DNA of 60,036 nucleotides from Candidatus Woesearchaeota archaeon. GTDB lineage: Archaea > Nanobdellota > Nanobdellia > Pacearchaeales > GW2011-AR1. Both the position numbers and the translations under genes were made by a program. Below the pieces are notes generated by a model that was given only the letters and a program-made list of their open reading frames with translations, searched no databases and was not told the origin of the DNA. The stretch is from the NCBI GenBank assembly GCA_964534185.1, contig CAZHOH010000007.1, positions 1 to 60,036 on the forward strand, given 5' to 3'. This document shows, piece by piece, positions 2,020-58,578 of the stretch (positions within the stretch are counted from its first letter, which is position 1; each line of letters starts with the position of its first letter).

Positions 2020-2409
2020 ATGGCTTACAAATTAATTAATGGGACAGAGGTAAGAAATGGTACCGTAATTATGATTGAAGGTGAGCCTTGTGTTGTTAAA
2101 AGTTTTGATGTTAGTAAAACTGGGAAACATGGGCATGCTAAAGTTAGAATTGAAGCTGTTGGCATTACTGATGGGAAGAAAAGAGTTCTTGCAAGACCAG
2201 GACATGAAAGATTTGAAGTTCCTCTGATAAATAAAAAGAAAGCTCAAGTATTATCTACAAATGAGGGTAAGGTGAATGTAATGGATTTAGAAAGTTTTGA
2301 AACCTTTGATATTGAAATGGCGAAAGATATGGAAGATGAATTAAAAGCAGAAGATCAGGTAGAATACTGGGATATTGAAGGAACTAAAGTTGTTAAGAGG
2401 AAATTATAA
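2020..2409 (+). CDS. eif5a: Translation factor aIF-5A
   Basis: Hypusine loop SKTGKHGHAK (K36); C-terminal OB domain (VMDLESFETF). Confidence 0.97.
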   Translation: MAYKLINGTEVRNGTVIMIEGEPCVVKSFDVSKTGKHGHAKVRIEAVGITDGKKRVLARPGHERFEVPLINKKKAQVLSTNEGKVNVMDLESFETFDIEMAKDMEDELKAEDQVEYWDIEGTKVVKRKL

Positions 2410-4269: not shown

Positions 4270-4620
4270 TCAAAGATAAATAATGCCTTGTTTTGTTAAT
4301 GCTGTAAATCTAATCCCTGTGGGCATAGAGAGTAATGCAGAGATTAAGGCCATATGTTCTTTTCCAATTCCTGATGCTATTGAAAGGGCGACTTCTGTTC
4401 CAGATATTTTTCCTTTTAGTTTTTCTAAAATTTCTTTTTTCAAATCCACAAGCCTTTGATTTAAGTTTACTTTAATGAATTCAAACTCTTTATTTGATTT
4501 GAAGTCTTTTGCAGAATCATCTCCAACAATAATTATTTTTTCCCATTCTCCATGTTTTACCAGTCCTGAAATCTGCGCCCATGTTCCATTTCCAGAACTT
4601 AATAATCCTATGAATTCCAT
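4270..4620 (-). CDS. Hypothetical protein, possible stand-alone CARF-like Rossmann domain (116 aa)
   Basis: Start MEFIG at 4620 by promoter spacing; beta-alpha pattern; ALSIASGIGKEHMAL resembles the CARF NxT/SGGxK motif. Confidence 0.6.
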   Translation of the reverse strand: MEFIGLLSSGNGTWAQISGLVKHGEWEKIIIVGDDSAKDFKSNKEFEFIKVNLNQRLVDLKKEILEKLKGKISGTEVALSIASGIGKEHMALISALLSMPTGIRFTALTKQGIIYL

Positions 4621-4678
4621 TTTATTTTTAGAAACAGCAGATTTATAAGTTTTTATTTCATATGTTAGATATATTAAA

Positions 4679-5146
4679 ATGGTTAAAGAAACTCCTTTGA
4701 ATGAAATTGTTTTGCGCAAATATGAACGTCCCTATAATCTTGATTCAAGACAGCTTGTTAAAAAAATTTGTTTATCTTTAGGTTTGCTTCAGCCAGGGGA
4801 TAGTAGGGATGTGATTGTTGATATATTGGTGGTTTTGACAGATTCTGGAAAAAACAAAGAAAAACTGGATTCTGTTGAAATTAGGAAGAGGGTTGAAGAG
4901 GTTAGGAAAAAAAATAATCTTGAATTGAAAGGTGTTGCTGATTCAAACATTAGAAGGCAACTGAAAAGATTGAGAGATTTAATGATAATTGATAAACAAA
5001 GTAATTCGTACTATTTGTCTGAGTTTGAGTCTCTGTATAGTATTTTTGAAGAAAAGATTGAGCAGTTTATTATTAATCCAAGTGTTTCTAGGATAAAAGA
5101 ATATTTGCAGGAATTGGAGAAACGGCGTTGTCCGGAGAAACAATAG
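4679..5146 (+). CDS. Winged-helix DNA-binding protein (putative regulator)
   Basis: LDSVEI...VADSNIRRQLKRLRDLMIIDKQSNSYYL helix-turn-helix plus wing pattern. Confidence 0.7.
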   Translation: MVKETPLNEIVLRKYERPYNLDSRQLVKKICLSLGLLQPGDSRDVIVDILVVLTDSGKNKEKLDSVEIRKRVEEVRKKNNLELKGVADSNIRRQLKRLRDLMIIDKQSNSYYLSEFESLYSIFEEKIEQFIINPSVSRIKEYLQELEKRRCPEKQ

Positions 5147-12096: not shown

Positions 12097-12801
12097 ATGG
12101 ATACATTTGTTAGGAAAATTTTTGAAGGGAGGGTTGATGAAAGAGTGCATATGCAGTTTCAAAAATTCAGTAAGGGAGTTTTTAAGAATAGGGCAGTAGT
12201 GAGTGCGAGTAAAACATCTAAAGGATATAATATTGGGACTTCTCATGAATATGGCAATGATCTTGTAATAGAGGTTGCTAAAAAATTGAAAGATGGAGAG
12301 AGTGTTAAAGTTACTGGAGCAATAGTTTGTACAATGGATTTAGATGGGGAGATTAAGTTTGAGGATAAAAAGCAGTTTCAGGGTGTTAAAAGATATTTGA
12401 TTAATAGTGAGATGGCAAAAGAGAAAATAATTGGGTTGTGTGAGCGGTTTCCAAAAGCATTTATTGCTTTGTCTTTTTCTGTAGGAGATACTGAGTTAAA
12501 AATAAAGCCGAAAGCTCCTAAATCTGGTAAACCTGCGACTTCAGGTGATAAAGAAATTAAGGGGGATTTTTGTAAGATTAAGACAAAGGATTTGGAAATT
12601 GTGAAAGCGTTTTTATTTGATATTGGAGAATTTAAAAAAGTTAATATAAATCATGAATTTTTTATTGAAGAATTAGAGATTCCAAAAGACGAAACAGATC
12701 CTGTTAAGATGAGAGAGAATACAGTTAGGAAGGGAAGGATTGTAAGGAAGATTAAGGCGGATGGAGAGGATAAAGTGAGTGAAAAATATTTTGAAGCATA
12801 A
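12097..12801 (+). CDS. Hypothetical basic protein upstream of the ribosomal cluster
   Basis: 234-aa ORF with own TATA at 12068-12075; no family recognised. Confidence 0.8.
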   Translation: MDTFVRKIFEGRVDERVHMQFQKFSKGVFKNRAVVSASKTSKGYNIGTSHEYGNDLVIEVAKKLKDGESVKVTGAIVCTMDLDGEIKFEDKKQFQGVKRYLINSEMAKEKIIGLCERFPKAFIALSFSVGDTELKIKPKAPKSGKPATSGDKEIKGDFCKIKTKDLEIVKAFLFDIGEFKKVNINHEFFIEELEIPKDETDPVKMRENTVRKGRIVRKIKADGEDKVSEKYFEA

Positions 12802-35879: not shown

Positions 35880-36884
35880 ATGGAAAAACTGCCCAAGATA
35901 AGTTTTGTGTTATGTGTTTATAATGAAGAGCCTAGAATTAGGCATTGTTTGGATAGTCTACTTGTCCAAGATTATCCTTTGAATAAGATTGAGGTTTTGG
36001 TTGCAGATGGAGGTTCTGGTGATAAGACTGTTGAAATTGTTAAAGAATATGCTAAAAAATATCCTAAAATAATTTTTTATCTTCACAATCCTGCTAAATA
36101 TAGTGAAGGAGAAGGTTGTGGAAAGGACAATACTTCAAGAAAAGCTAATGGAGAGACCATTGCCTTTATTGATGCAGATAATATTCTTGTTCAAAAAGAT
36201 TGGATAAAGAAAATGATTAAGCCGTTTGAAAATTCAGAGATCTCTGCTGTTCAGTCTCGGATGTTTGTGCCAAAAAATGGAGGTATTATTGACAGGTATT
36301 TGGGAGCTATTGGAATTGAAGATCCTTTTGCAGTACCTTATTCCTTGAACTCGCAAGTTATTATGTGTCCTAAAAGATTCAGACATGTTAAAGATGGAGA
36401 CTATTTTGTTTACACTGCAAGAGTTGATAATTTTCTTTATGCAGGAAATAACGGGTTTTTTATCAGAGCTAAAGATTTTTTTGATACTGGAGGATATACA
36501 AGAGATATAGAGAACTTTTACAGGATGGCAAAAGAAGGTTATAAGATTGCAGTTCCTAGGCAGGCATTATTGCACCATAAGACTGCTACGACTTTGAAAA
36601 ATTTTATTTTGAAAAGGGGGAAATATGTTTATAGGCATCTGAAACATTATGAAGGCAGAGAGTTTTATTGGTTTGATTTAACAAGGAATAATTTATCTCA
36701 GAATCTTAAATTTTTGAAGACTGTTTTTTTCAATTTATTGTTTGTTCCAGGATTTTTTGAGGGTATTGAAATGGCTGTTAAGAAGAGGGAAGTATCCTGG
36801 CTTATTCACCCGCTTATGTTGTTTTTTGTTACGATAGATTATTGTTTGATAAAGTTGTATTTTGTTCTTGGGCTGGATTCCTGA
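35880..36884 (+). CDS. Glycosyltransferase family 2
   Basis: YNEE, DGGSGDKT, FIDAD, GG.TRD. Confidence 0.9.
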   Translation: MEKLPKISFVLCVYNEEPRIRHCLDSLLVQDYPLNKIEVLVADGGSGDKTVEIVKEYAKKYPKIIFYLHNPAKYSEGEGCGKDNTSRKANGETIAFIDADNILVQKDWIKKMIKPFENSEISAVQSRMFVPKNGGIIDRYLGAIGIEDPFAVPYSLNSQVIMCPKRFRHVKDGDYFVYTARVDNFLYAGNNGFFIRAKDFFDTGGYTRDIENFYRMAKEGYKIAVPRQALLHHKTATTLKNFILKRGKYVYRHLKHYEGREFYWFDLTRNNLSQNLKFLKTVFFNLLFVPGFFEGIEMAVKKREVSWLIHPLMLFFVTIDYCLIKLYFVLGLDS

Positions 36885-38532
36885 TTATTTCATAAACAAA
36901 AACATCTTGGAAAAGTCCGTGTAATTTGAAGCCAATATTTTCATAATTTATCTGCTGAGGTAAATTTTGTTGTCCTGATGTGAAATCGACTTTGGAGTTG
37001 GTGAAAGGTATTTCCCATGATGCGAAAGTTATTTGTCCTGAACTTGTTTGAGCATACTCTACTTTTTTCATCCATTCTGGATGGTTGGGTTCTGAAAATG
37101 AAACTAAAATAAACCTTGCTTCTGGATTTTGTTCTAATTTTGAAAGGAATTCTTCAAATGAGACATCTTCACTCTCTTCTTCTCCTGTTAACATCGCTAA
37201 ATTTATTACTTTTCTTTCTGAATAATATGCAGGTTGTGGCAAAGGTATTGAAATAATTATATCATTAGGATTTGAGTTTTCTTTAAGATAAAGTCCTGCT
37301 TGCCTTATGCCTTCAAAAGAGGGTGCCTTTGATTTGATTATTGTGTCTGCATGTTGGACTTGGTAGTACCCTCCTATGCCCATTAGTAAAACTATTGCAA
37401 TTATTGGAAGTGTCTTGTGATGTTTTTTGAAAAAATCTGCAATAAAGAGTGTTGATTTTGAGATACAGATAAATGCCCCAAATAGGAGGGGAAAATACCA
37501 TCTTGGTTCTCCAAAGCTATCAATTCTCATTTGATAGAATAAGAAATAGGAAAGAACTAAAATTATAGAGATTACTGAAAATAAATCTGCTTTTAGTTTC
37601 TGGGATTTCTTTATGTGTCCGAAGGACATTATGAGCGTCCCAGCCATTATTAAAAGCCCAAGGTAAAATAAAATAAATAAGGGGCTTGAGAAGTAATTTC
37701 CTGTTAAGAAATATGCTTCAAAAACATCGAATGGAAGGAAAGTAAATTCTGCGGCTCTTCTGTAAGTTCCTGCAACACTAGTTATAGGGTTTGTGAATAG
37801 GAAAGTTTCGAAGAGTAAAAGCAAAATCCCTGAAATTCCTAAAGCTATCCAGTTGCATTTGTCTTTAATTAAAGATTTGAAATCTTTTGATATTAACATG
37901 TAAACTAAAAAGATTGCTCCGAAAAGGAAATAGCCACGACGAGTTGCATAAGCTAGAATTGAGAGTGCTGCAGCTATCGGAACTGCCCACTGAGGATTTA
38001 TTTTATTGAATATTTTTTGTTTGTTTTCATAGCCTTGCCAGAAGATGAAAATGGCGAGAAAGCCGAGGAAAAGTCCGGGAATTCCTAAGTGAAATCTAAA
38101 TGTGTTGAATAATATTGGCCAGAATACTGCTATAATAAATGAAGAGATTAGGGCTATTCTTTTATCATTATACATTTGGGTGCAAAGATAATATGTCAAT
38201 AAAATTAGAAATATTGAAGGGATTACTTCTAAAACGAATTTTATTGTTGGTTCTGATATGCCTAATCTGAAAAACCAGCTTACAATAAATGGGAATATGG
38301 AGTTGTGTTGGGGGGTTATTATCCAATCCACAGGCAGTCCTGCGAGATTTTTTGCATAAGCCATGTAGTCTGCTTCATCCCACCAAAGTGGTTGGGTTTT
38401 TGTGATTGTGAAATAATATATCCTGATGGCAATTGCAAATAAAAATATTCCTAAAAAAGAGAGATTGTATTTATTAGAAAGCCAGTTTTTTATTTTCTCT
38501 TTTTTTTGTTCTAATTCTTTTTGTTCATCCAT
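36829..38532 (-). CDS. GT-C fold glycosyltransferase (PMT/GT39/ArnT-like)
   Basis: LWWDEADY loop after TM1, about 11 TM helices, EPRWY, soluble C-terminal domain. Confidence 0.88.
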   Translation of the reverse strand: MDEQKELEQKKEKIKNWLSNKYNLSFLGIFLFAIAIRIYYFTITKTQPLWWDEADYMAYAKNLAGLPVDWIITPQHNSIFPFIVSWFFRLGISEPTIKFVLEVIPSIFLILLTYYLCTQMYNDKRIALISSFIIAVFWPILFNTFRFHLGIPGLFLGFLAIFIFWQGYENKQKIFNKINPQWAVPIAAALSILAYATRRGYFLFGAIFLVYMLISKDFKSLIKDKCNWIALGISGILLLLFETFLFTNPITSVAGTYRRAAEFTFLPFDVFEAYFLTGNYFSSPLFILFYLGLLIMAGTLIMSFGHIKKSQKLKADLFSVISIILVLSYFLFYQMRIDSFGEPRWYFPLLFGAFICISKSTLFIADFFKKHHKTLPIIAIVLLMGIGGYYQVQHADTIIKSKAPSFEGIRQAGLYLKENSNPNDIIISIPLPQPAYYSERKVINLAMLTGEEESEDVSFEEFLSKLEQNPEARFILVSFSEPNHPEWMKKVEYAQTSSGQITFASWEIPFTNSKVDFTSGQQNLPQQINYENIGFKLHGLFQDVFVYEIIRNPAQEQNTTLSNNNLS

Positions 38533-38559: not shown

Positions 38560-39423
38560 TTATTTTGTGCTTTCGACGCGTTGCCAAACTTTATTAAATT
38601 CTCTTTTCCATAACCTTATATCTAAAAATACCCTTAACCAGATATAAATTTTGAGGACTATAAGAAGGATAAAATAGAATAAGTGTCTGAAAGATTTTAA
38701 TTCATAAGTTGATTTTAAAGCTGCATAAAATTCTTCTTTAAAAGAATTGAGCTTGGATATTTTAAAATATTGGTTTAACTGATAAAGTCTTGAAGCTGTT
38801 CGCTTTTTTTGTCGTATCCAATCTGGGAGGTTTGTTGGATATTTAACATAAACTTCTGCATTTGGTTCATAAATTGTTTTAAAACCTTGTGAGATAATCT
38901 TTAAAGATATGAAAGCGTCATCGGCTAAAATTTCTTCAGGAATTTTTTGGAACAACTCTTTTTTTATTGCATAACAATATCCTGAGCAAATTATGTTCTT
39001 GTTATTTTTTGATTGGTTTAATCTTAGACTATGAAAACCCTGTGAAAGGATATATGCCCAAAATCCAAATAGGCTATTTTTTGAATTTGTGGGAATTACT
39101 TTTGCTGAGACTGCACCTATTTTTTTATTTTTGAAGTGTTTGGTTAATTCTTTTATTGAATTTTCTGAGGTGAAAACATCTCCATCTGATAAAATAATAA
39201 TTTCTCCTTTTGTTTTAGGTATTGTATTATTTAACGCAGAGGGTTTTCCTTTTCCTGAATCTTTTATTGTTTTTATTTTATATTTTTTTGCTTGATTTAA
39301 TGTTTCTTTATCTGGTGCAGAAACTATAATCTCAAAGTTTTTTGGTTTTTGATTTAGAAAGGAGTTTATTGCTTTTCCAATAGTTTTTGGTTCTTTAAAA
39401 GATGTAATGACAATTGATATCAT
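38560..39423 (-). CDS. Glycosyltransferase family 2
   Basis: ITSFKEP, GKPSALN, SDGD, ADD, QKKR; alternative start at 39435. Confidence 0.9.
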   Translation of the reverse strand: MISIVITSFKEPKTIGKAINSFLNQKPKNFEIIVSAPDKETLNQAKKYKIKTIKDSGKGKPSALNNTIPKTKGEIIILSDGDVFTSENSIKELTKHFKNKKIGAVSAKVIPTNSKNSLFGFWAYILSQGFHSLRLNQSKNNKNIICSGYCYAIKKELFQKIPEEILADDAFISLKIISQGFKTIYEPNAEVYVKYPTNLPDWIRQKKRTASRLYQLNQYFKISKLNSFKEEFYAALKSTYELKSFRHLFYFILLIVLKIYIWLRVFLDIRLWKREFNKVWQRVESTK

Positions 39424-39424
39424 T

Positions 39425-40399
39425 TTATAAGGCATTTATCACTTCTTCAGGAGATATTGATTTTGTGAGTTCTTCATTGTATTGATCCATTTTTTCTGGG
39501 AAAAATTCCTGTAATTTTGAAGAGGTTATTTTTTTTAATAAATTATAAGATTCAATTTCATTTGGAGATGTGCAAAAAAAGAGTCCGATTGTTGGTTTTT
39601 TCAAAGCTAAAGCAATATGGAGTGCAAGAGTATCTGCGCAGACTATTTTGTCGCATGAATTAATTAAAGCTGAGAAAGTTTTAACAGAGTTGGCTGTATT
39701 TTTTGCATAAATTCGTGTTCCTTGCTGATTTAATTCTTTTTCTAAAGTTTGTATTGATTCAATTTCTTCTGGGCCGCCTAACAGAATTATTTCATAACCT
39801 TTTTCTTTAGATTTTGAAATGAACTCTTTAATATTTTCTTTGTGCCAGGCTTTTGAGGGCCATGTTTTTGAAGAACCAATATTCACTCCTAAAATTTTTT
39901 TGTTTTCTAAATTATTTTGTTTTAAGAAATTTTCTATATCTTTTTTATGTTGTTCAGATATTTGGATTATTGGCTCCTGTTTTTTATATGGTAAATTACA
40001 GATTTTAAAAATCATTTCCTGATATGTTTTCGTATTTGATCTCTTTAATTCATCATCAAAAACAGTGTTTAGATAATATTCTGCTTCAGGATTGAAGGGT
40101 GCCGGGAAGCCGTCAAAATCATAGTATCCCAATTTTTCTTTTGCATTTACTTGGTTGGCTAGACTTGTTCCTTTTTCATCTATTTCTAAACTATAAAGGA
40201 TATCGAACTGTTCTTGAGGAATTTCTGATGAGAAAGCTATTTTATCAATCTTGGGGTTTTGTTCTAAGATTTCCCTGCTTGCAGGCTTTGTTATCCAAGT
40301 TATTTCTGATTCTGGGAATTTTTCTTTTATTGCGTGAAGAATTGGAGTGGTTCTGACTACATCTCCTAAAGCTCCTAGTTTGATTATGCAGATTTTCAT
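39425..40399 (-). CDS. Glycosyltransferase family 9 (ADP-heptose:LPS heptosyltransferase-like)
   Basis: IIKLGALGDVVRTTP, KAW, GGPEE, DTLALHIA.AL.KPTIGLF. Confidence 0.9.
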   Translation of the reverse strand: MKICIIKLGALGDVVRTTPILHAIKEKFPESEITWITKPASREILEQNPKIDKIAFSSEIPQEQFDILYSLEIDEKGTSLANQVNAKEKLGYYDFDGFPAPFNPEAEYYLNTVFDDELKRSNTKTYQEMIFKICNLPYKKQEPIIQISEQHKKDIENFLKQNNLENKKILGVNIGSSKTWPSKAWHKENIKEFISKSKEKGYEIILLGGPEEIESIQTLEKELNQQGTRIYAKNTANSVKTFSALINSCDKIVCADTLALHIALALKKPTIGLFFCTSPNEIESYNLLKKITSSKLQEFFPEKMDQYNEELTKSISPEEVINAL

Positions 40400-40432: not shown

Positions 40433-40837
40433 ATGAAAGTGTATATTGCTGGTAAAATTGGCACAAAGTATGAGTTAAAGCAGCTTGAATATATTGACAA
40501 ATTATGTAAAGATTTGGGGTTTAAAACTTTTCTTCCCCATAGGGATGTTGGTTTTGCTAAAGGAATTGGAGATGTTAAAAGGATTTTTGAAGGAGATATT
40601 AAAAAGGGTTTTGAAGAAGTTGATATGGTTATCGCGCTTTTGGATGGACTGCATGTGGGGGCAGGGACTGCTTGGGAGTTAGGATATGCATATGCTAGAG
40701 GAATTCCAAGAATAGGTTTAAAGACTGATGAAAGTATTGGGGAGGCATTAGAGAGTTTAAGCGCAATTTTAATTGGTTCTATGAAAATCTGTGGTTCTTT
40801 AGAGGAGTTGGAAGAGGAGTTGAAAAAATTAGTCTAA
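40433..40837 (+). CDS. Nucleoside 2-deoxyribosyltransferase / N-glycosidase family protein
   Basis: VYIAG, FLPH, IFEGD, GTAWELGYAYA (catalytic Glu position). Confidence 0.88.
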   Translation: MKVYIAGKIGTKYELKQLEYIDKLCKDLGFKTFLPHRDVGFAKGIGDVKRIFEGDIKKGFEEVDMVIALLDGLHVGAGTAWELGYAYARGIPRIGLKTDESIGEALESLSAILIGSMKICGSLEELEEELKKLV

Positions 40838-41734
40838 AGTTTTGGTTGAGTTAATTTCTGTTTCTCTCCAACCATCTTTATAAGCCTTTTTTTGTCTTAA
40901 ATCTTTAAATGCTTTTAAGTAAATGTAAAGTCTTGCTGGAAATAATTCTAAAGTCCATAATAATTCTCTTGGGTTTTTCCATTGGGTTAATGCAAAAAAT
41001 GTTCCGAATTTTATTTCATTAAATAAAGATTTTGTTCTTGGCATGTTTGGAGCTATTTTAGTTAGATTTTCGTGGGCTTTTATATTTCGAGTTCTTTGAT
41101 TTATCCAGTCTTTCCAGTTATCTGGGTTTTTTACATAAACCTCTGCTTTATCTGCATAGGCGATTTTATATCCTTTTTTCCAGAATAAATAAGGAATAAT
41201 ACTATCTTCTGAAGTTTCAATTGGAAACTCAGTTATTATGCTGTTTCTTATTGCAAAAAGGTATCCGGAACATTCGAAGAATTTGTTTTCTTCTGATAAT
41301 TTTTTTCTTACTTTGTCTACACCCTTAAACGCGACTTTTGCCCAAAACCCATATTTTGTATTTTCTGAATCTATTGAGACTGGTTTGCCTGTAACACAAC
41401 CTATTTTTGGGTTTTGGAATTTTTTTGTAATTTCTTCCAAAGCATTTTGAGAAACAAAAACATCCCCATCTGATAAAATAAAAAAGTCTTCTTTATTATC
41501 TGACCAAAGTTCTTGAAATAGGATATTGAGTGCATAAGCTTTTCCTTCTCCAGGATCTAAAAAGAATTCTACTCTTTTATCTTTTATTAATTTTTTAATT
41601 TGTGTTTCTACTTCTGGAAATGGGTCGACTATTGTTATTTTTATTTGGCTGTTTTCTGCTTGATTTAAAAAAGTTGTAACTGCCCTTATTGTTGAGTTTG
41701 GCTCGTTGTAAGAAGTAATTATAACATTAATCAT
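40829..41734 (-). CDS. Glycosyltransferase family 2
   Basis: ITSYNEP, GKAYALN, SDGD, SED, QRTR. Confidence 0.9.
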   Translation of the reverse strand: MINVIITSYNEPNSTIRAVTTFLNQAENSQIKITIVDPFPEVETQIKKLIKDKRVEFFLDPGEGKAYALNILFQELWSDNKEDFFILSDGDVFVSQNALEEITKKFQNPKIGCVTGKPVSIDSENTKYGFWAKVAFKGVDKVRKKLSEENKFFECSGYLFAIRNSIITEFPIETSEDSIIPYLFWKKGYKIAYADKAEVYVKNPDNWKDWINQRTRNIKAHENLTKIAPNMPRTKSLFNEIKFGTFFALTQWKNPRELLWTLELFPARLYIYLKAFKDLRQKKAYKDGWRETEINSTKTLD

Positions 41735-41922
41735 TTTAATTCAAAAGGATAATCTGCAGGGCGGATTATTACCATTGTTTGTCCTTGATTTTCTAGTTCT
41801 AAACGGCATTTGCTTGAACCTTGTTTTCCAATATTTGAAATTTCTATTTCTTTGATTGTCCAGGTTTTTCCCATAAGTAAGACTTTGTCGCCTTTTTTAA
41901 GTTCTTTTGCTCTTTTCTTCAT
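41731..41922 (-). CDS. Stand-alone aIF-5A/EF-P N-terminal (KOW/SH3) domain paralog, 63 aa
   Basis: 17/60 identities by hand alignment to the aIF-5A at 2020-2409; SNIGKQGSSK versus SKTGKHGHAK; ATGA overlap with the downstream GT2. Confidence 0.8.
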   Translation of the reverse strand: MKKRAKELKKGDKVLLMGKTWTIKEIEISNIGKQGSSKCRLELENQGQTMVIIRPADYPFELK

Positions 41923-41943: not shown

Positions 41944-41951
41944 CTTATAAA
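41944..41951. promoter_or_regulatory. Bidirectional TATA box (CTTATAAA / TTTATAAG) shared by the mini-aIF-5A gene and queC
   Basis: Exactly 22 nt from each divergent ATG (41922 and 41973). Confidence 0.68.
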
Positions 41952-41972: not shown

Positions 41973-42668
41973 ATGAATAATGGGATAATTTTATGTTCTG
42001 GTGGCTTGGATAGTGTAACTACTGCTTTTTATGTGAAAAAGAAACTTGGTTTTGATAAAATTATTATTTTGTTTCTTAATTATGGGCAGAGAAATCTGAA
42101 TGCTGAAAGAAAATGTTCTCGAAAATGTGCTAAAAATTTGAGTGCTGAATTTAAAGAGATAGATTTATCGGAATTGGGAAAAATTTCTACTTCAATGCTT
42201 AATAGTTCTGAAAAAGCTACAAAGATAAAGGATGATTTGAAAGATACAAAAAAAGAATCGGGTAAATGGTATGTTCCTTTTAGAAATACGATTTTTTTGG
42301 CTTATGCTTTGGCTTATGCTGAGTCTTTCTATGTTAAAAGGGGAGAGATTTACGAGTTATTTGTGGGTTTTAAGAGTGAAGGAAAAGAGGCTTATCCTGA
42401 TACGACTCCTGAATTTGTGGAAGTTATGAATAAGATGCAAGAGGTGGCTGGCGGAGGGAAATTTAAGATAAATGCACCTTTGATTAAAATGGATAAAGAG
42501 GACATTGTAAATCTTGGGAATAAACTCGGGATTAATTTTAAGGAAACTTTTAGTTGTTATGTGAGCCCGGATGAGAAACATTGCGGAACTTGTTTGTCAT
42601 GTAGATTAAGGCAAGCAGGATTTTATTGGGCAGACGTTGAAGATGTGACAGAATATAAATCAGAATAA
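41973..42668 (+). CDS. queC: 7-cyano-7-deazaguanine synthase QueC family protein
   Basis: PP-loop SGGLDS, NYGQR, VPFRN, YPD, Zn site SCY..HCGTCLSC. Confidence 0.92.
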   Translation: MNNGIILCSGGLDSVTTAFYVKKKLGFDKIIILFLNYGQRNLNAERKCSRKCAKNLSAEFKEIDLSELGKISTSMLNSSEKATKIKDDLKDTKKESGKWYVPFRNTIFLAYALAYAESFYVKRGEIYELFVGFKSEGKEAYPDTTPEFVEVMNKMQEVAGGGKFKINAPLIKMDKEDIVNLGNKLGINFKETFSCYVSPDEKHCGTCLSCRLRQAGFYWADVEDVTEYKSE

Positions 42669-54813: not shown

Positions 54814-56595
54814 TTAAGAATTTTTGTAGAATAAATAGATTAGTATTGGAATTGATAGGATTGCAAAAAAGGCTTCGATTAATAAAATAAGGTAAGCAAA
54901 CTGGTCTAAAAGCCTGTCTGGAAGATTGTGTGTTTGATAATTATCAAAAACTTCGTGTTTTGGTTTGTAGGCTACAGGATAGAAGAACCAAGTATGAGTT
55001 GATTCTGCAAAGTTAATAACAGAAGGATTTAAGGGGATTGAAGACCTATAAATTCTGAAATGAGGCTGTCCTTGCCTGTTTTCTATTGTTTTAACTAAGG
55101 CAGAGTTTTGCTCGAAGAATAGTGTGATAGCTTCCATTGTTTGATTAAATTGGGGTTGATTTTGGATAGTTCCCCAACCACAATCATCTATTACGCACTC
55201 TATAAAATAAGTGTTTATGTTTAGAGTGTTATTTTGAGAACCTGGAGAATTTATGAAAGAGGTGAAATGTTGGGCTTCTAAATAATGGGTGTCCCATAAT
55301 GAAAAAACTATTTGTCCGCGATATATTCTACTATCTGCAACAACTAAGGAATTTTGGTCTATGTTTTGTTCTTTAAATTCTATTAACTGGTTTATTTCGT
55401 TGTTTCCTAAAAATCCTTTTGCTCCTGAATTCTGGACTTTAACAAAAGCAAATACTAATATTAAAGCTAAAAACGAATAGATTAGTATTTTTTGATTTTT
55501 TTTCTCTTTAAGCAATTGTGAAGTTTTGTCTATTGTTAATGCTGAGAGTATTGATATGAAAAAAGTTCCGAAAATAAAGTGGGTTGACAAAAGCGAGGTT
55601 CCTGCAAGGAAGATGAAAGGAAATGTAAAGAGCGAGATCAAAAGCAAGGTGAATTTATTTCTGTTTTTGTAAAAAAAGAATAGCCCAATTATTGCTAATA
55701 CTGATAATAAAATTCCTTCGTAGCGGTAGAATATCGAAAAAGCTTCTATTATTCCGGGGCTTCTTTCTGCTGTTCCAAAGATTAGCCTGCTTAAGGAAAA
55801 TGGCTGGATTGTTGGTGCTATTGATTCATAAGTTTCAAATCCTATTTTTGTAAATCTTGCAAATTGCAAATCTAAAATTCCCTTGTCTTTGTATAAAAGA
55901 TAATTGAAAGTTAAGATTGGAATTACTGAAGCAATTAGGATTAGTATGGAATAGATTGTTTGTTTTATTTTCCATTTCTTTAGGTTTTTTCTGTTGTAAT
56001 ATATATAAAATATCAGAAAGGCAGGAATCATTATGATAGCTATTTGTTTTATCATGGCTGCGATGCCTAGAGAAATCCAAGTTATTAAAAAGTAGGGTGT
56101 TTTGTTGGTTTTGAAAAAGATGATTGTTGCATATAATGCAAACATCACGAAGAAAAACATTGGAATGTCCATTTCTGCTCTTGTTTCTAATAATTGGAAA
56201 GAGGAAAATGTAAAGATGAATGCTGAGATTAGTCCTATTTTTTTATTGAATAATTCTTTTGCTATTAAGTAAACTAAGATTATTGAAAGGGCTCCAAAAA
56301 GTATTGCTAAGAACCTGATTCCGAACATATTTGCTCCAAAGAGTTTCATTGCAAAATCTGTAAGCCAGAACCAAACTGCGTCCTGGTCCATTATCTGAAG
56401 TTTTTTTGATTCTATGAATCCTAGAGAATGGGTCCCGTGAACCATTTCATCTGCGTTGAAAGGGGAAGTTATTGCAATAAGACTTCTGAGAATAAAACCT
56501 ATGATGACTAAAAGTAAAATATATTTCTTAGGATTGTTTGATAATATGAATTCTAAAGATTTATCTAAGATTTTATTGAAATCAAGTTTTGCCAT
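54814..56595 (-). CDS. GT-C fold glycosyltransferase (PMT/GT39/ArnT-like)
   Basis: ADE loop after TM1, R...ILFG, EMD, many TM helices, soluble domain with C-terminal TM anchor. Confidence 0.88.
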   Translation of the reverse strand: MAKLDFNKILDKSLEFILSNNPKKYILLLVIIGFILRSLIAITSPFNADEMVHGTHSLGFIESKKLQIMDQDAVWFWLTDFAMKLFGANMFGIRFLAILFGALSIILVYLIAKELFNKKIGLISAFIFTFSSFQLLETRAEMDIPMFFFVMFALYATIIFFKTNKTPYFLITWISLGIAAMIKQIAIIMIPAFLIFYIYYNRKNLKKWKIKQTIYSILILIASVIPILTFNYLLYKDKGILDLQFARFTKIGFETYESIAPTIQPFSLSRLIFGTAERSPGIIEAFSIFYRYEGILLSVLAIIGLFFFYKNRNKFTLLLISLFTFPFIFLAGTSLLSTHFIFGTFFISILSALTIDKTSQLLKEKKNQKILIYSFLALILVFAFVKVQNSGAKGFLGNNEINQLIEFKEQNIDQNSLVVADSRIYRGQIVFSLWDTHYLEAQHFTSFINSPGSQNNTLNINTYFIECVIDDCGWGTIQNQPQFNQTMEAITLFFEQNSALVKTIENRQGQPHFRIYRSSIPLNPSVINFAESTHTWFFYPVAYKPKHEVFDNYQTHNLPDRLLDQFAYLILLIEAFFAILSIPILIYLFYKNS

Positions 56596-57043
56596 TTACT
56601 TCTCTCAAGATATTTAATGTTTGGAAGCCTATATGATTAATATCAAAGCCCCAATAGAAGATACTAATAGCGTCTAAAATTTCGTGGAAAATAAAACCAA
56701 TTATTACAAAGATAAGAATTGGAAACGGGAATGAAAGTAGTATTAAGAGAATCATTGGTTCGATTCCATGAAGAAGACAGGGTGCGGCTTTTGCTTTTTT
56801 CCTTCTTTCGTTTCTTGATAAATGTCTGAATTTTTGTGTTTTTGTAGAAAACCATTTAAATGCTTTATTAAGGCTAATATCTTTTCTTTTGTAAACATAA
56901 TAAAGGTAATGATCTACATCAATTAAAAAAGAGGCTAACCAAATTATCACAGCTCCTTTTAATCCTATGGAGTCTGGAAATAAAATTAAGAGAATTAGAG
57001 AAAAGAAAAATCCAAGAGTTATATGGGTTTTTGGATACATCAT
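56582..57043 (-). CDS. Membrane-bound metal-dependent hydrolase (YdjM-like)
   Basis: TH, IDVDH, LHGIE, HEILD metal-ligand pattern within hydrophobic segments. Confidence 0.72.
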   Translation of the reverse strand: MMYPKTHITLGFFFSLILLILFPDSIGLKGAVIIWLASFLIDVDHYLYYVYKRKDISLNKAFKWFSTKTQKFRHLSRNERRKKAKAAPCLLHGIEPMILLILLSFPFPILIFVIIGFIFHEILDAISIFYWGFDINHIGFQTLNILREVNGKT

Positions 57044-58578
57044 TCACCTATTTTTTTAATCATATCTGCAAATGCAGGACGGCTTATTAAAACTCCGATT
57101 GTTAAACCAATCAAGGTTGTTACCATAAACCCTTTTAACAATCCTGCTCCTGCCCACCATAAAGGCAAGAGTGCAAAGGCTGTTGTAAGGTATGATGCAA
57201 CAACTATGAAGAGTGCTTTTTTTAATTTTTCTTTTAGACTTAAAGAACGTTTTGAAGAGGACTCATCTAAAATAACTATTTGCTGGTCGACTCCTGTTCC
57301 GATTGTTACTAAAATTCCTACAATGCTGGGCAAATCTAAATTCCATTTTATTAAAGAGGCAAATCCTAAAATCATAATAATTTCTGAAAAGCTTGTAAAA
57401 ATAAGTGCAAGAGCTGCCTTAAAATTTCTATATCTTATGAAGATGATTAAAGAAACTGCACCTAGTGTAACAACTGCAGTTAATAAAATTAGTGAAGTAA
57501 ATTGGCTTCCGAGGACAGGAGATATTCTATCTAATTTTACTATCTCTAATTTATAGGGTAAGCTTCCAGTTACTAAGATTGTTTGAAGTTGTCTCATTGA
57601 ATTTTCTGCTGAATTGAAGGCAGATTCTCTATCTGGGCCCGAACCACTTCCTTGTATCTGTATTTGAGTTGTTTTTTCTCCTTGTAAGTCTCTTGAGATA
57701 AAGAGAGAAGTTGTAGGATTGTCATCCACGAAAAAGTCTATTTGTTTTTCTAGGTATTGTGGTTGAGATGAATTTATTCCCATGACTGCAGTAATATCTG
57801 CGTGTCTTTGTGCAGCTTGTTCACTTAGATGTATGACAAAATAATAGTTACAGAACCAAGTGTCTGAAACGTCTTGGTTGCAAGAAGTTATTCCTGAACA
57901 CTGGGCGTCTCCACGACAAACGTAAGTTATGTCTTTTTTTCTTGTTTCATTATTTATGCCCCCAGTAAATACTTGCTTTTCTCCGATTTTGGCTTCAAAT
58001 TTTCCTTGTTGAGAAACTAAACTTTCTAATTCGCTTGGAGATGTTCCTCCCATTTCGACTAGCATAAATTGATTTCCTGAAAGATCTGATACAGGCCTAA
58101 TACTAACATCACTAATCCCATAAACATTAAAACGGTTGTTTGTTATATCGATAAGAGTTTGCATTTCGCTTTCGGTTAATTTTTGCTCTGGCTCTACTAA
58201 TGCTCTTGAACCTCCCTGCAAATCAAGTCCTGCTTTAAGTCTTGTTTTTGGGATATTTTCAACAGATATTTTCGGAACAGAGTCTGAGAAGAATACATAT
58301 TGGTTTTCTAAAGTATCAAGGACTATTTTTTGAGAAGTATTTTGTGTTTTAAATAGGAAATTTATTTGTTGAGAGTATTCTTCAACATTTGCTATTTTAT
58401 TTCCGTTTACTGCTGTGATTATTTCACCTTGCTTTAGTCCTGAGGTGTAAGCTGTAGAATTGTTATCTATATGTTTTGCATAAACACCATCTGATGTAAA
58501 ACCCTGAATGTTAAAAATTAATAATATAGACAAGACTAGGGCGATTATTAATAGCCAGATTCTCCAAGTCAATTTCAT
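57040..58578 (-). CDS. secD: Protein translocase subunit SecD (with PDZ-like N-terminal insert)
   Basis: GLDLQGG, GSLP, ISPVLG, IGTGVDQQIVI.DE; start MKLTWR by ATGA overlap with secF. Confidence 0.94.
   Translation of the reverse strand: MKLTWRIWLLIIALVLSILLIFNIQGFTSDGVYAKHIDNNSTAYTSGLKQGEIITAVNGNKIANVEEYSQQINFLFKTQNTSQKIVLDTLENQYVFFSDSVPKISVENIPKTRLKAGLDLQGGSRALVEPEQKLTESEMQTLIDITNNRFNVYGISDVSIRPVSDLSGNQFMLVEMGGTSPSELESLVSQQGKFEAKIGEKQVFTGGINNETRKKDITYVCRGDAQCSGITSCNQDVSDTWFCNYYFVIHLSEQAAQRHADITAVMGINSSQPQYLEKQIDFFVDDNPTTSLFISRDLQGEKTTQIQIQGSGSGPDRESAFNSAENSMRQLQTILVTGSLPYKLEIVKLDRISPVLGSQFTSLILLTAVVTLGAVSLIIFIRYRNFKAALALIFTSFSEIIMILGFASLIKWNLDLPSIVGILVTIGTGVDQQIVILDESSSKRSLSLKEKLKKALFIVVASYLTTAFALLPLWWAGAGLLKGFMVTTLIGLTIGVLISRPAFADMIKKIGE

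Follow-up and report, generated by a model that had tools for sequence, protein, structure and literature searches.

The function of IF5A and EF-P, textbook translation factors, hinges on one hairpin whose tip bears an unusual modification, and the locus described here raises the question of what a free-standing copy of the domain carrying that hairpin is for. The copy is a 63-aa open reading frame (ORF), here called mini-aIF5A or mini, in a 60,036-nt stretch of DNA (the window; contig CAZHOH010000007.1 of assembly GCA_964534185.1, positions 1 to 60,036) from an AT-rich DPANN archaeon, Candidatus Woesearchaeota, whose own genome assembly is 1.25 Mb and 86% complete. An earlier reading of the window from its letters alone (the original prediction) had described this ORF as a half-size paralog of the archaeal translation factor aIF5A, and the ORF is present with the position, strand and sequence then given (Table 1). 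We find that mini is a true stand-alone paralog of aIF5A domain I and that its gene is inherited en bloc with those of four enzymes: a QueC-family PP-loop ATPase (QueC), a GT2 glycosyltransferase, a nucleoside 2-deoxyribosyltransferase-like (NDT-like) protein and a GT9 glycosyltransferase. This enzymatic context did not figure in the original prediction; it is the new result, and a decisive one.

A stand-alone domain I of aIF5A

BLASTP aligned mini with the canonical aIF5A of the window over 58 positions, with 17 identities (the original count was 17/60), 31 positives and E 5e-9. The single 2-aa gap, the pairing of K33 with the hypusine-site lysine K36 and that of SNIGKQGSSK with SKTGKHGHAK came out as first described. 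An N-terminal A..LKKG element and a C-terminal RP..FE element are common to the two proteins, and the C-terminus of mini coincides with the end of aIF5A domain I (RP..FE(V/L)), which bears out the description of a protein that stops at the domain boundary. On its own mini falls below the Pfam cut-offs for EFP_N (22.4 against 23 bits) and IF5A-like_N (20.5 against 27.1 bits) and scores 25.5 bits (E 8e-6) against a cut-off of 138 bits for the NCBIfam IF-5A model; a few of its homologs carry a precomputed PF21485 match. Public annotation of the family is mostly 'hypothetical', with one JGI record naming EF-P/IF5A, and the matches in the protein atlas are Nanobdellota clusters without a name.

Profile and structure comparisons gave a consistent picture and put the resemblance well outside what chance would give. 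Searched against the PDB, a profile of 79 family members picked out IF5A chains, 28 in all (the best being 1bkb, 3.8e-12), and nothing else below E 0.04. When the profile was restricted to distant members it found the aIF5A of the window (E 8.3e-16), and it matched full-length aIF5A in 395 of the 401 genomes of a phylum sample (evenly drawn, all of one class, 400 of them at ≥90% completeness). The AlphaFold2 (AF2) model of mini has a mean predicted local distance difference test score (pLDDT) of 91.1, loop residues 31-40 being the least confident (mean 79), and its N-terminus forms part of the barrel. The best 50 Foldseek matches to this model were all domain I of IF5A or EF-P, at query-normalized TM-scores (TMq) of 0.78-0.92, and they include EF-P domain I in complex with the glycosyltransferase EarP. 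Placement in another KOW/SH3 family, which the original prediction had named as a possible outcome of profile searches, is ruled out because the PDB profile matches (IF5A only), the Foldseek matches and the aIF5A matches all point to IF5A/EF-P.

A word-indexed search with mini returned 52 proteins of 62-68 aa. An exhaustive search of 1.84 billion representatives gave 36 matches, of which 35 are real (51-84 aa); the other, a low-complexity protein of 1099 aa, is spurious. For the comparisons below the family is represented by 73 distinct genes taken from their loci, the window's included, which encode 61-71 aa. Most of these proteins start MKK(K/Q)A. They are basic (median net charge +4), as are the linked QueC and GT2 proteins; the charges are uninformative. 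In the hairpin S29, K33, K38 and R40 are invariant (73/73), and E27 (71/73), G35 (72/73) and G32 (68/73) are nearly so; the modifiable lysine is thus kept throughout. The loops of mini and aIF5A differ most consistently at the two positions −3 and −2 relative to K33. At −3, which is lysine or arginine in 36/36 aIF5A proteins, 61 minis have an acidic residue (Asp in 49, Glu in 12) and six a basic one; at −2, threonine or proline in 36/36 aIF5A, there is isoleucine in 67 minis and threonine or proline in one. Position +1 is His in 36/36 aIF5A and Gln in 56/73 minis, while 14/73 have His and hence GKHG. The GKQG loop is therefore specific to one clade, and distant members are nearly aIF5A-like in this region (e.g. 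SHLGKHGHAKCR); what had been presented as a rewritten hypusine motif holds for the window's protein and the majority with Gln at +1, not for the family as a whole.

The mini gene is under purifying selection. Synonymous sites are saturated across the family (median pS, the proportion of synonymous differences, 0.75), and the ratio of nonsynonymous to synonymous divergence (dN/dS) is usable for the only unsaturated pair (L075/L078), in which it is 0.09 (dN 0.033, dS 0.36). The median proportion of nonsynonymous differences (pN) is 0.31, similar to those of the neighbouring QueC (0.32) and GT2 (0.25) genes. The earlier view that the ORF is maintained rather than decayed is upheld by these figures and by the invariance of K33 in 73 distinct homologs. 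The small size, the lack of a curated family match above cut-off and the prevailing annotation as hypothetical might have suggested that the ORF is wrongly called, or that it is what remains of a duplicated aIF5A gene in decay. This explanation is refuted by conservation and its chances are close to nil: there are at least 73 distinct intact orthologs in eight families, with a narrow size range, invariant residues, a fixed promoter geometry (below), a confident fold and the low dN/dS of the closest pair.

In a quick maximum-likelihood tree the 73 minis were parted from domain I of 37 full-length aIF5A proteins by one long branch with a support of 100 in the Shimodaira–Hasegawa-like approximate likelihood ratio test (SH-aLRT), which fits one ancient duplication and truncation. 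The 13 mini-bearing genomes fetched for this purpose and the window all retain a normal aIF5A, and the 36 aIF5A sequences from 37 loci of the phylum all match S[KR][TP]GKHG. As full-length aIF5A is kept in every mini-bearing genome examined, mini is neither one part of a split gene nor a replacement. No real mini carries the OB-fold domain II, and no true fused form was found among the longer proteins searched. Four candidates were set aside. P0090 is an over-extended upstream ORF call, not a fusion, and P0092, taken as a candidate for the fused form, is a normal aIF5A. P0088, an apparent chimera with the N-terminus of GT2 joined to mini, looks like an artefact of assembly or gene calling. P0091 combines a mini-like N-terminus with a PD-(D/E)XK/SEC-C nuclease-like region on a single 1.7-kb contig; it is probably an artefact but could be a real fusion. 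Full-text literature searches returned no description of a single-domain IF5A paralog, in agreement with the original prediction, nor of a link between QueC and such a protein in DPANN archaea.

Co-inheritance with four enzymes

A mini encoded by a short ORF was found in 14 of the 401 sampled genomes, spread over eight GTDB families, as against 395 with aIF5A, making it clear that this is a patchy unit recurring across families. Eight further genomes with two matches each to the distant-member profile proved with the 73-gene profile to hold full-length aIF5A only, and six genomes (G333, G244, G243, G396, G322 and G360) enter these tallies solely as genomes lacking mini. A genome-contig collection yielded mini in another 71 species-level genomes, recorded as Pacearchaeota, Woesearchaeota or Nanoarchaeota. 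There was no real copy on viral contigs, where the sole match (L148) is spurious and shares only the pattern IIRPEDYP.

The linkage was assessed by tblastn with the window's proteins. GT2 lies downstream of mini in 69 of 71 loci (the other two loci end first) and a divergently oriented QueC lies upstream in 66; NDT-like and GT9 proteins are encoded in 57 and 52 of these loci, respectively. The arrangement of QueC diverging from mini-GT2 recurs in all 14 mini loci of the 401-genome sample, with GT2 identities down to 41%. PF06508 (QueC) was found in 22 of the 401 genomes, among them all 14 with mini. NDT-like orthologs (E≤1e-15) occur in 13 of the 401, all mini-bearing, and each lies on the same contig as mini and 1-4 kb from it; G086 is the one mini-bearing genome without this gene. 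The best 14 of the 401 genomes for GT9 (233-714 bits, full length) are likewise the 14 with mini, the next match scoring 182 bits. In a separate sample of 61 genomes from the window's own family, 15/15 loci with a GT2 at ≥57% identity carry mini and QueC, and none of the 12 assessable loci with a GT2 paralog (≤50% identity) carries either, one more such locus being cut by the end of its contig. A quick tree placed 72 of 73 mini-linked GT2 proteins in one clade (SH-aLRT 91). The exception is L027, in which QueC and mini are kept and GT2 is represented only by a paralog 1.5 kb away; in two other loci (L008 and L010) QueC is not adjacent to mini, but an ortholog (54-57% identical) is present elsewhere in the genome. 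Mirror-tree distances, which are weak evidence, gave r 0.68 for mini-QueC, 0.66 for mini-GT2 and 0.55 for QueC-GT2. Among the PADLOC defence models nothing in the module was matched except QueC (by the QueC and QatC models).

The start codons of QueC and mini are separated by 49-53 nt in 60 of 73 loci and by exactly 50 nt in 44. When these 44 spacers were aligned, 11 positions in the block 16-32 were at least 90% conserved (consensus A.AA..TTTATAA.T.T), as against an average of 47-56% at the flanking positions, at 76% A+T. The TATA octamer of the window lies in the centre of the spacer, 21 nt from either ATG. In archaea the centre of the TATA box lies some 26 nt ahead of the transcription start, and the flanking B recognition element (BRE) sets its orientation. 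On this general knowledge of archaeal promoters the spacer is read as containing one shared, near-palindromic TATA box which would act bidirectionally and drive two leaderless transcripts, one for QueC and the other for mini-GT2. The original prediction had given mini a promoter of its own; the promoter is there, but it would be shared with QueC. The symmetric geometry, with its 50-nt spacer and one implied TBP site, is fixed across the eight families, and the spacer would be a clean natural example of bidirectional transcription in archaea. On the other side of mini, its stop codon and the start codon of GT2 overlap by 4 nt in 21 of 73 loci and are no more than 13 nt apart in 57; in two loci the distance exceeds 1.5 kb. 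The ATGA overlap of the window, also noted originally, is consistent with translational coupling of the two genes.

Table 1. Position in the window of the mini-aIF5A gene, its linked genes and the elements between them
Feature	Position	Strand	Remarks
Mini-aIF5A gene	41731..41922	-	63 aa; stand-alone paralog of aIF5A domain I (SH3-like/KOW barrel)
Hairpin loop S29-R40, SNIGKQGSSKCR	41803..41838	-	counterpart of the hypusine loop; K33 codon 41824-41826
ATGA	41731..41734	-	overlap of mini stop and GT2 start
Spacer between mini and QueC start codons	41923..41972	.	50 nt
TATA element in spacer, TTTATAAG read towards mini	41944-41951		near-palindromic, central
QueC-family PP-loop ATPase	41973..42668	+	231 aa; Pfam QueC 2.3e-53; apparently an orphan
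GT2 glycosyltransferase	40829..41734	-	301 aa; predicted to be co-transcribed with mini
NDT-like protein (PF05014)	40433..40837	+	134 aa; convergent with GT2
GT9 glycosyltransferase, heptosyltransferase-like, GT-B	39425..40399	-	324 aa
Canonical two-domain aIF5A	2020..2409	+	129 aa; parent family of mini; loop SKTGKHGHAK; Pfam IF5A-like_N 2.2e-14

The linked enzymes and their surroundings

Public annotation of the divergent neighbour is QueC, and its score with the Pfam QueC model is 181 bits; with the NCBIfam equivalog TIGR00364 it reaches 148.7 bits against a cut-off of 150.3. SGGxDS, VPxRN, a conserved lysine and C(x)8CxxCxxC (the Cys4 zinc site) are kept in all 73 mini-linked QueC proteins. 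The canonical signature of QueC is YxQxHxxE and Y/FxQ(x)5E is the variant of the QueC-like ligase Cap9, as described in PMC13329287. The mini-linked proteins have an invariant Y37-x-Q39-(x)5-E45, without the histidine and with one extra residue before the glutamate; in HMMER alignments this stretch runs without a gap against Cap9 (PDB 9nto) and with a 1-residue gap against Bacillus subtilis QueC. The YPDC motif reads YPDT in 75% of the set, and two insertions, one around residues 87-95 and the other around 119-124, are specific to the clade.

The mini-linked QueC looks like an orphan, TGT having been found in one of the six genomes checked and QueD in none; its gene neighbourhoods, too, showed no QueD, QueE or FolE. 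Neither TGT nor QueE gave a match in the window's own genome (86% complete), and the sole PTPS match (20.9 bits) lies inside a TPR protein; among five high-quality mini-bearing genomes PTPS (QueD) was found in none and TGT in one. Deoxyhypusine synthase (DHS) is present in the window's own genome and in all five of these (6/6). A MiaB-like radical-SAM methylthiotransferase (UPF0004 plus Radical_SAM; G000 contig C4, L133:1760-2893, minus strand) adjoins a TPR protein. QueC proteins fetched from six of the eight QueC-bearing genomes that lack mini are 22-35% identical to the linked QueC. Two of the six adjoin PTPS, one of these in a QueC-FolE-PTPS-QueF-like cluster, and one adjoins a phosphoribosyltransferase. 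Loci L136 (G325:C34) and L137 (G261:C27) show the canonical QueC-FolE-PTPS-QueF-like cluster or a 416-aa QueC beside PTPS, the latter protein carrying a 169-aa N-terminal extension; the occurrence of the canonical preQ0 cluster in a few genomes indicates that 7-deazaguanine biosynthesis exists in rare members of a phylum poor in QueC (22/401).

In fold, the AF2 model of GT2 (pLDDT 91.7) is best matched by hyaluronan, cellulose and chitin synthases, in their catalytic domains (TMq 0.53-0.69). Three amphipathic helices make up the C-terminus; judged by eye without a predictor, the protein has no obvious transmembrane segment. GT2 has no sequence match in the PDB, and its only NCBIfam match is a weak one to PgaC/IcaA. 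The NDT-like protein matches PF05014 at 1e-14 and the nucleoside 2-deoxyribosyltransferase of PDB 7m5h at 3e-9. A second GT2 of 291 aa (38560-39435, minus strand) lies directly downstream of the GT9 gene; it is 36% identical to the mini-linked GT2 and clusters (as L131) with the non-linked paralogs in the quick GT2 tree.

The window also carries a ribosomal-protein operon, SecY, FtsZ and AglB/STT3 with a 28-kb glycosylation cluster. This surface-glycan cluster (28469-56595) takes up close to half of the window and encodes, besides AglB/STT3, an initiating transferase of the GT4 family, two flippase-like proteins, at least 10 glycosyltransferases, four methyltransferases, a sulfotransferase, a FemAB-like protein, a deacetylase and a PMT-like mannosyltransferase. 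Six ORFs of 149-567 aa in the window have no Pfam match at E≤1e-5: 36829-38532 (−), 4270-4719 (−), 4679-5146 (+), 12097-12801 (+), 56582-57043 (−) and 57023-57556 (+). The longest of them (567 aa, 36829-38532), which has no NCBIfam match either, is the last gene of the minus-strand array that holds the module.

Possible functions and known systems

Whatever its mechanism, the module accounts for a gene annotated as QueC in DPANN genomes that lack TGT, and it defines a compact five-gene system. As to its function, the interpretation we prefer, tentatively and at somewhat less than an even chance, is that K33 serves as the acceptor for the QueC-family ligase and that glycosyl transfer follows. 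The small barrel would be the dedicated protein substrate or carrier of the module, with K33 held out at the tip of the hairpin, a rigid structure made in IF5A for entering a deep enzyme tunnel. The QueC-family enzyme would adenylate a 7-carboxy-7-deazaguanine-like acid and ligate it to the ε-amine of K33, much as Cap9 uses an N-terminal amine, and the NDT-like enzyme and/or the glycosyltransferases would add a sugar to the adduct, for instance at the free N9 of the base. The modified mini might then have a role on the ribosome, give off a product or supply the synthesis of cell-surface glycoconjugates. Besides the homology and fold, the single origin, the constraint on the loop, the linkage, the shared promoter, the apparent orphan status of QueC and its Cap9-type spacing described above, precedents lead to this proposal. 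One is the parallel with type IV CBASS, where a QueC-like ligase and an enzyme for transfer at the purine N9 are likewise combined with a dedicated protein bearing a nucleophilic amine. Cap9 is reported to activate 7-carboxy-7-deazaguanine with ATP and to ligate it to the N-terminal amine of the partner CD-NTase (+176 Da), and its base-exchange partner, the TGT-like Cap10, to bind the adduct in such a way that N9 is available for transfer; the same report predicts further QueC-type conjugation systems (10.1101/2025.04.06.647259). The other is that the hairpin tip is already used by three enzymes, DHS, EpmA and EarP. That K33 becomes a nucleoside-like hypermodified lysine, with deazaguanine on its ε-amine and the base then glycosylated by the NDT-like, GT2 and GT9 enzymes, seems possible but doubtful. 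The suggestion made originally, of a different modification or a carrier domain, fits the gene context of the module.

Several observations weigh against modification of K33 by QueC. Known deazaguanylation uses the α-amine of a glycine at the N-terminal end of a flexible tail, and mini starts MKK and has its lysine in a structured hairpin. The genes for making 7-carboxy-7-deazaguanine were not found (PTPS in 0/5 high-quality genomes, QueE not in the window's own genome), so that the module would depend on a host for the acid or use some other compound. The QueC itself is near canonical, scoring 60.7 bits against B. subtilis QueC and 38.8 against Cap9; its x5 spacing is also seen in one non-linked QueC beside PTPS, and the set in which the motif was compared is one without canonical archaeal QueC proteins, the homolog search with QueC having given the orthologous clade only. 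The conserved residues of the loop are the same as in aIF5A and could equally reflect recognition by DHS or the ribosome. GT2 resembles polysaccharide synthases and sits in the 28-kb surface-glycan cluster, and the module could therefore serve the envelope with mini as a partner that is not a substrate. Finally, related genomes are not independent; the co-occurrence counts are not statistics, and fewer separate events underlie them than their size suggests.

The envelope-related alternative would make mini an accessory or regulatory subunit of GT2 or of the module, gating or targeting the synthase-like enzyme; its basic loop would bind a nucleotide, a lipid or a glycan and would not be modified. 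Processive GT2 synthases are served in this way by PilZ domains and small partner proteins, and the tight spacing of the mini and GT2 codons (overlapping or no more than 13 nt apart in 57/73 loci), the single orthologous clade of 72/73 linked GT2 proteins found only with mini, the synthase-like fold with its three C-terminal amphipathic helices and the large glycosylation cluster would all be expected of such a pair. It leaves unexplained, however, why an orphan QueC and an NDT-like protein are co-inherited, why QueC shares the promoter and why the exact scaffold of the hypusine loop is retained with an invariant lysine, and locus L027 keeps mini and QueC without a linked GT2 ortholog; on balance we regard it as unlikely. 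A further explanation turns on DHS itself, of which mini could be a client, either as a second (deoxy)hypusinated protein, consisting of domain I only and working on the ribosome close to its E site or its peptidyl-transferase centre, or as a decoy that titrates DHS; the linkage would then be regulatory only. In the complex described in PMC10042821 DHS binds domain I of eIF5A only, by charge complementarity and with the loop entering the tunnel, and the C-terminal domain contributes no stabilising contact, the binding depending on the positive charge of domain I; mini is basic, keeps S..GK.G..K.R (with GKHG in 14/73) and occurs together with DHS in 6/6 genomes. Yet DHS is needed in any case for the canonical aIF5A, which is kept with its standard loop in 13 other genomes and the window, the acidic residue at −3 (61/73) and Gln at +1 (56/73) run against that charge complementarity, strict co-inheritance with four enzymes is unexplained, and a protein without domain II is expected to have low affinity for the ribosome. 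This role is quite improbable. Much the same low probability attaches to the proposal that the product of the module is a small molecule in free form or a surface-glycan constituent, derived from a 7-deazapurine (a glycosylated deazapurine nucleoside, for example), mini being a transient carrier with the intermediate on its lysine until release, in the manner of LysW or the scaffold peptide of a ribosomally synthesized and post-translationally modified peptide (RiPP), or an RNA-binding regulator of the operon. The presence of a pair of nucleobase enzymes, QueC and the NDT-like protein, alongside two glycosyltransferases would suit it, one non-linked QueC of the phylum does lie beside a phosphoribosyltransferase, and in PMC13329287 another QueC-family cluster is described as adjoining PF05014 proteins in about 89% of neighbourhoods. 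Against this, neither a precursor pathway nor a release hydrolase or protease nor an exporter was identified as a strict member of the module, and the carrier version overlaps with the acceptor function that we prefer for K33, the sole difference being what becomes of the adduct.

Should K33 prove to be the acceptor, the conjugation of nucleobases to proteins by QueC would no longer be confined to bacterial anti-phage systems and N-terminal amines but would reach archaea and a lysine side chain, and a modification arm would have been detached from its factor and re-used. The full modification scheme, if true, would represent a new kind of post-translational chemistry on the IF5A scaffold, the first deazaguanylation of a side chain and the first in archaea, with the hypusine hairpin re-used as an acceptor arm and a free-standing domain equipped with a functional alternative to hypusine.

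Of the systems with which the module can be compared, canonical QueC (7-cyano-7-deazaguanine synthase) shares with the mini-linked enzyme the strong Pfam match and the SGGxDS, VPxRN, C(x)8CxxCxxC and lysine elements, but it works with QueD and QueE upstream and TGT-family enzymes downstream, and has the histidine of YxQxHxxE; the linked enzyme falls just short of the NCBIfam equivalog cut-off. Cap9/Cap10 and QatC/QatB resemble the module in that a QueC-family enzyme with PP-loop and zinc site intact is paired with a dedicated protein partner outside tRNA modification. Cap9 also has the Y/FxQ(x)5E spacing, and each set includes an enzyme for the N-glycosidic bond at the purine N9, the TGT-like Cap10 in CBASS and the NDT-like protein here. 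These systems differ in being bacterial and anti-phage and in their substrates, a CD-NTase or the helical QatB; PMC13279940 describes the acceptor as the α-amine of the N-terminal glycine of a disordered tail (starting M-G/S-G), this glycine being essential in the QatC-QatB complex. The mini module has an IF5A-like barrel as partner, no nuclease, NTPase or CD-NTase and a glycosylation context. Domain I of aIF5A and eIF5A is like mini in fold (TMq 0.8-0.87, root-mean-square deviation 1.4-2.0 Å), in the hairpin E..S..GK.G..K.R and in the lysine at the equivalent tip, whereas the linkage of mini is with QueC, GT2, NDT-like and GT9 genes and not with translation genes. The barrel is also that of EF-P domain I (TMq 0.89-0.92 for 5wxk, 6j7m and 3oyy). 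EF-P, unlike mini, is a three-domain bacterial factor, and EarP, also of the GT-B type, belongs to a different family; isolated EF-P domain I is a sufficient substrate for EarP (title of PDB 5wxk; PMC6544042). With EarP as an arginine rhamnosyltransferase and EpmA/GenX as the enzyme of lysine β-lysylation, EF-P provides the precedent for enzymes of varied classes acting on the tip of this hairpin.

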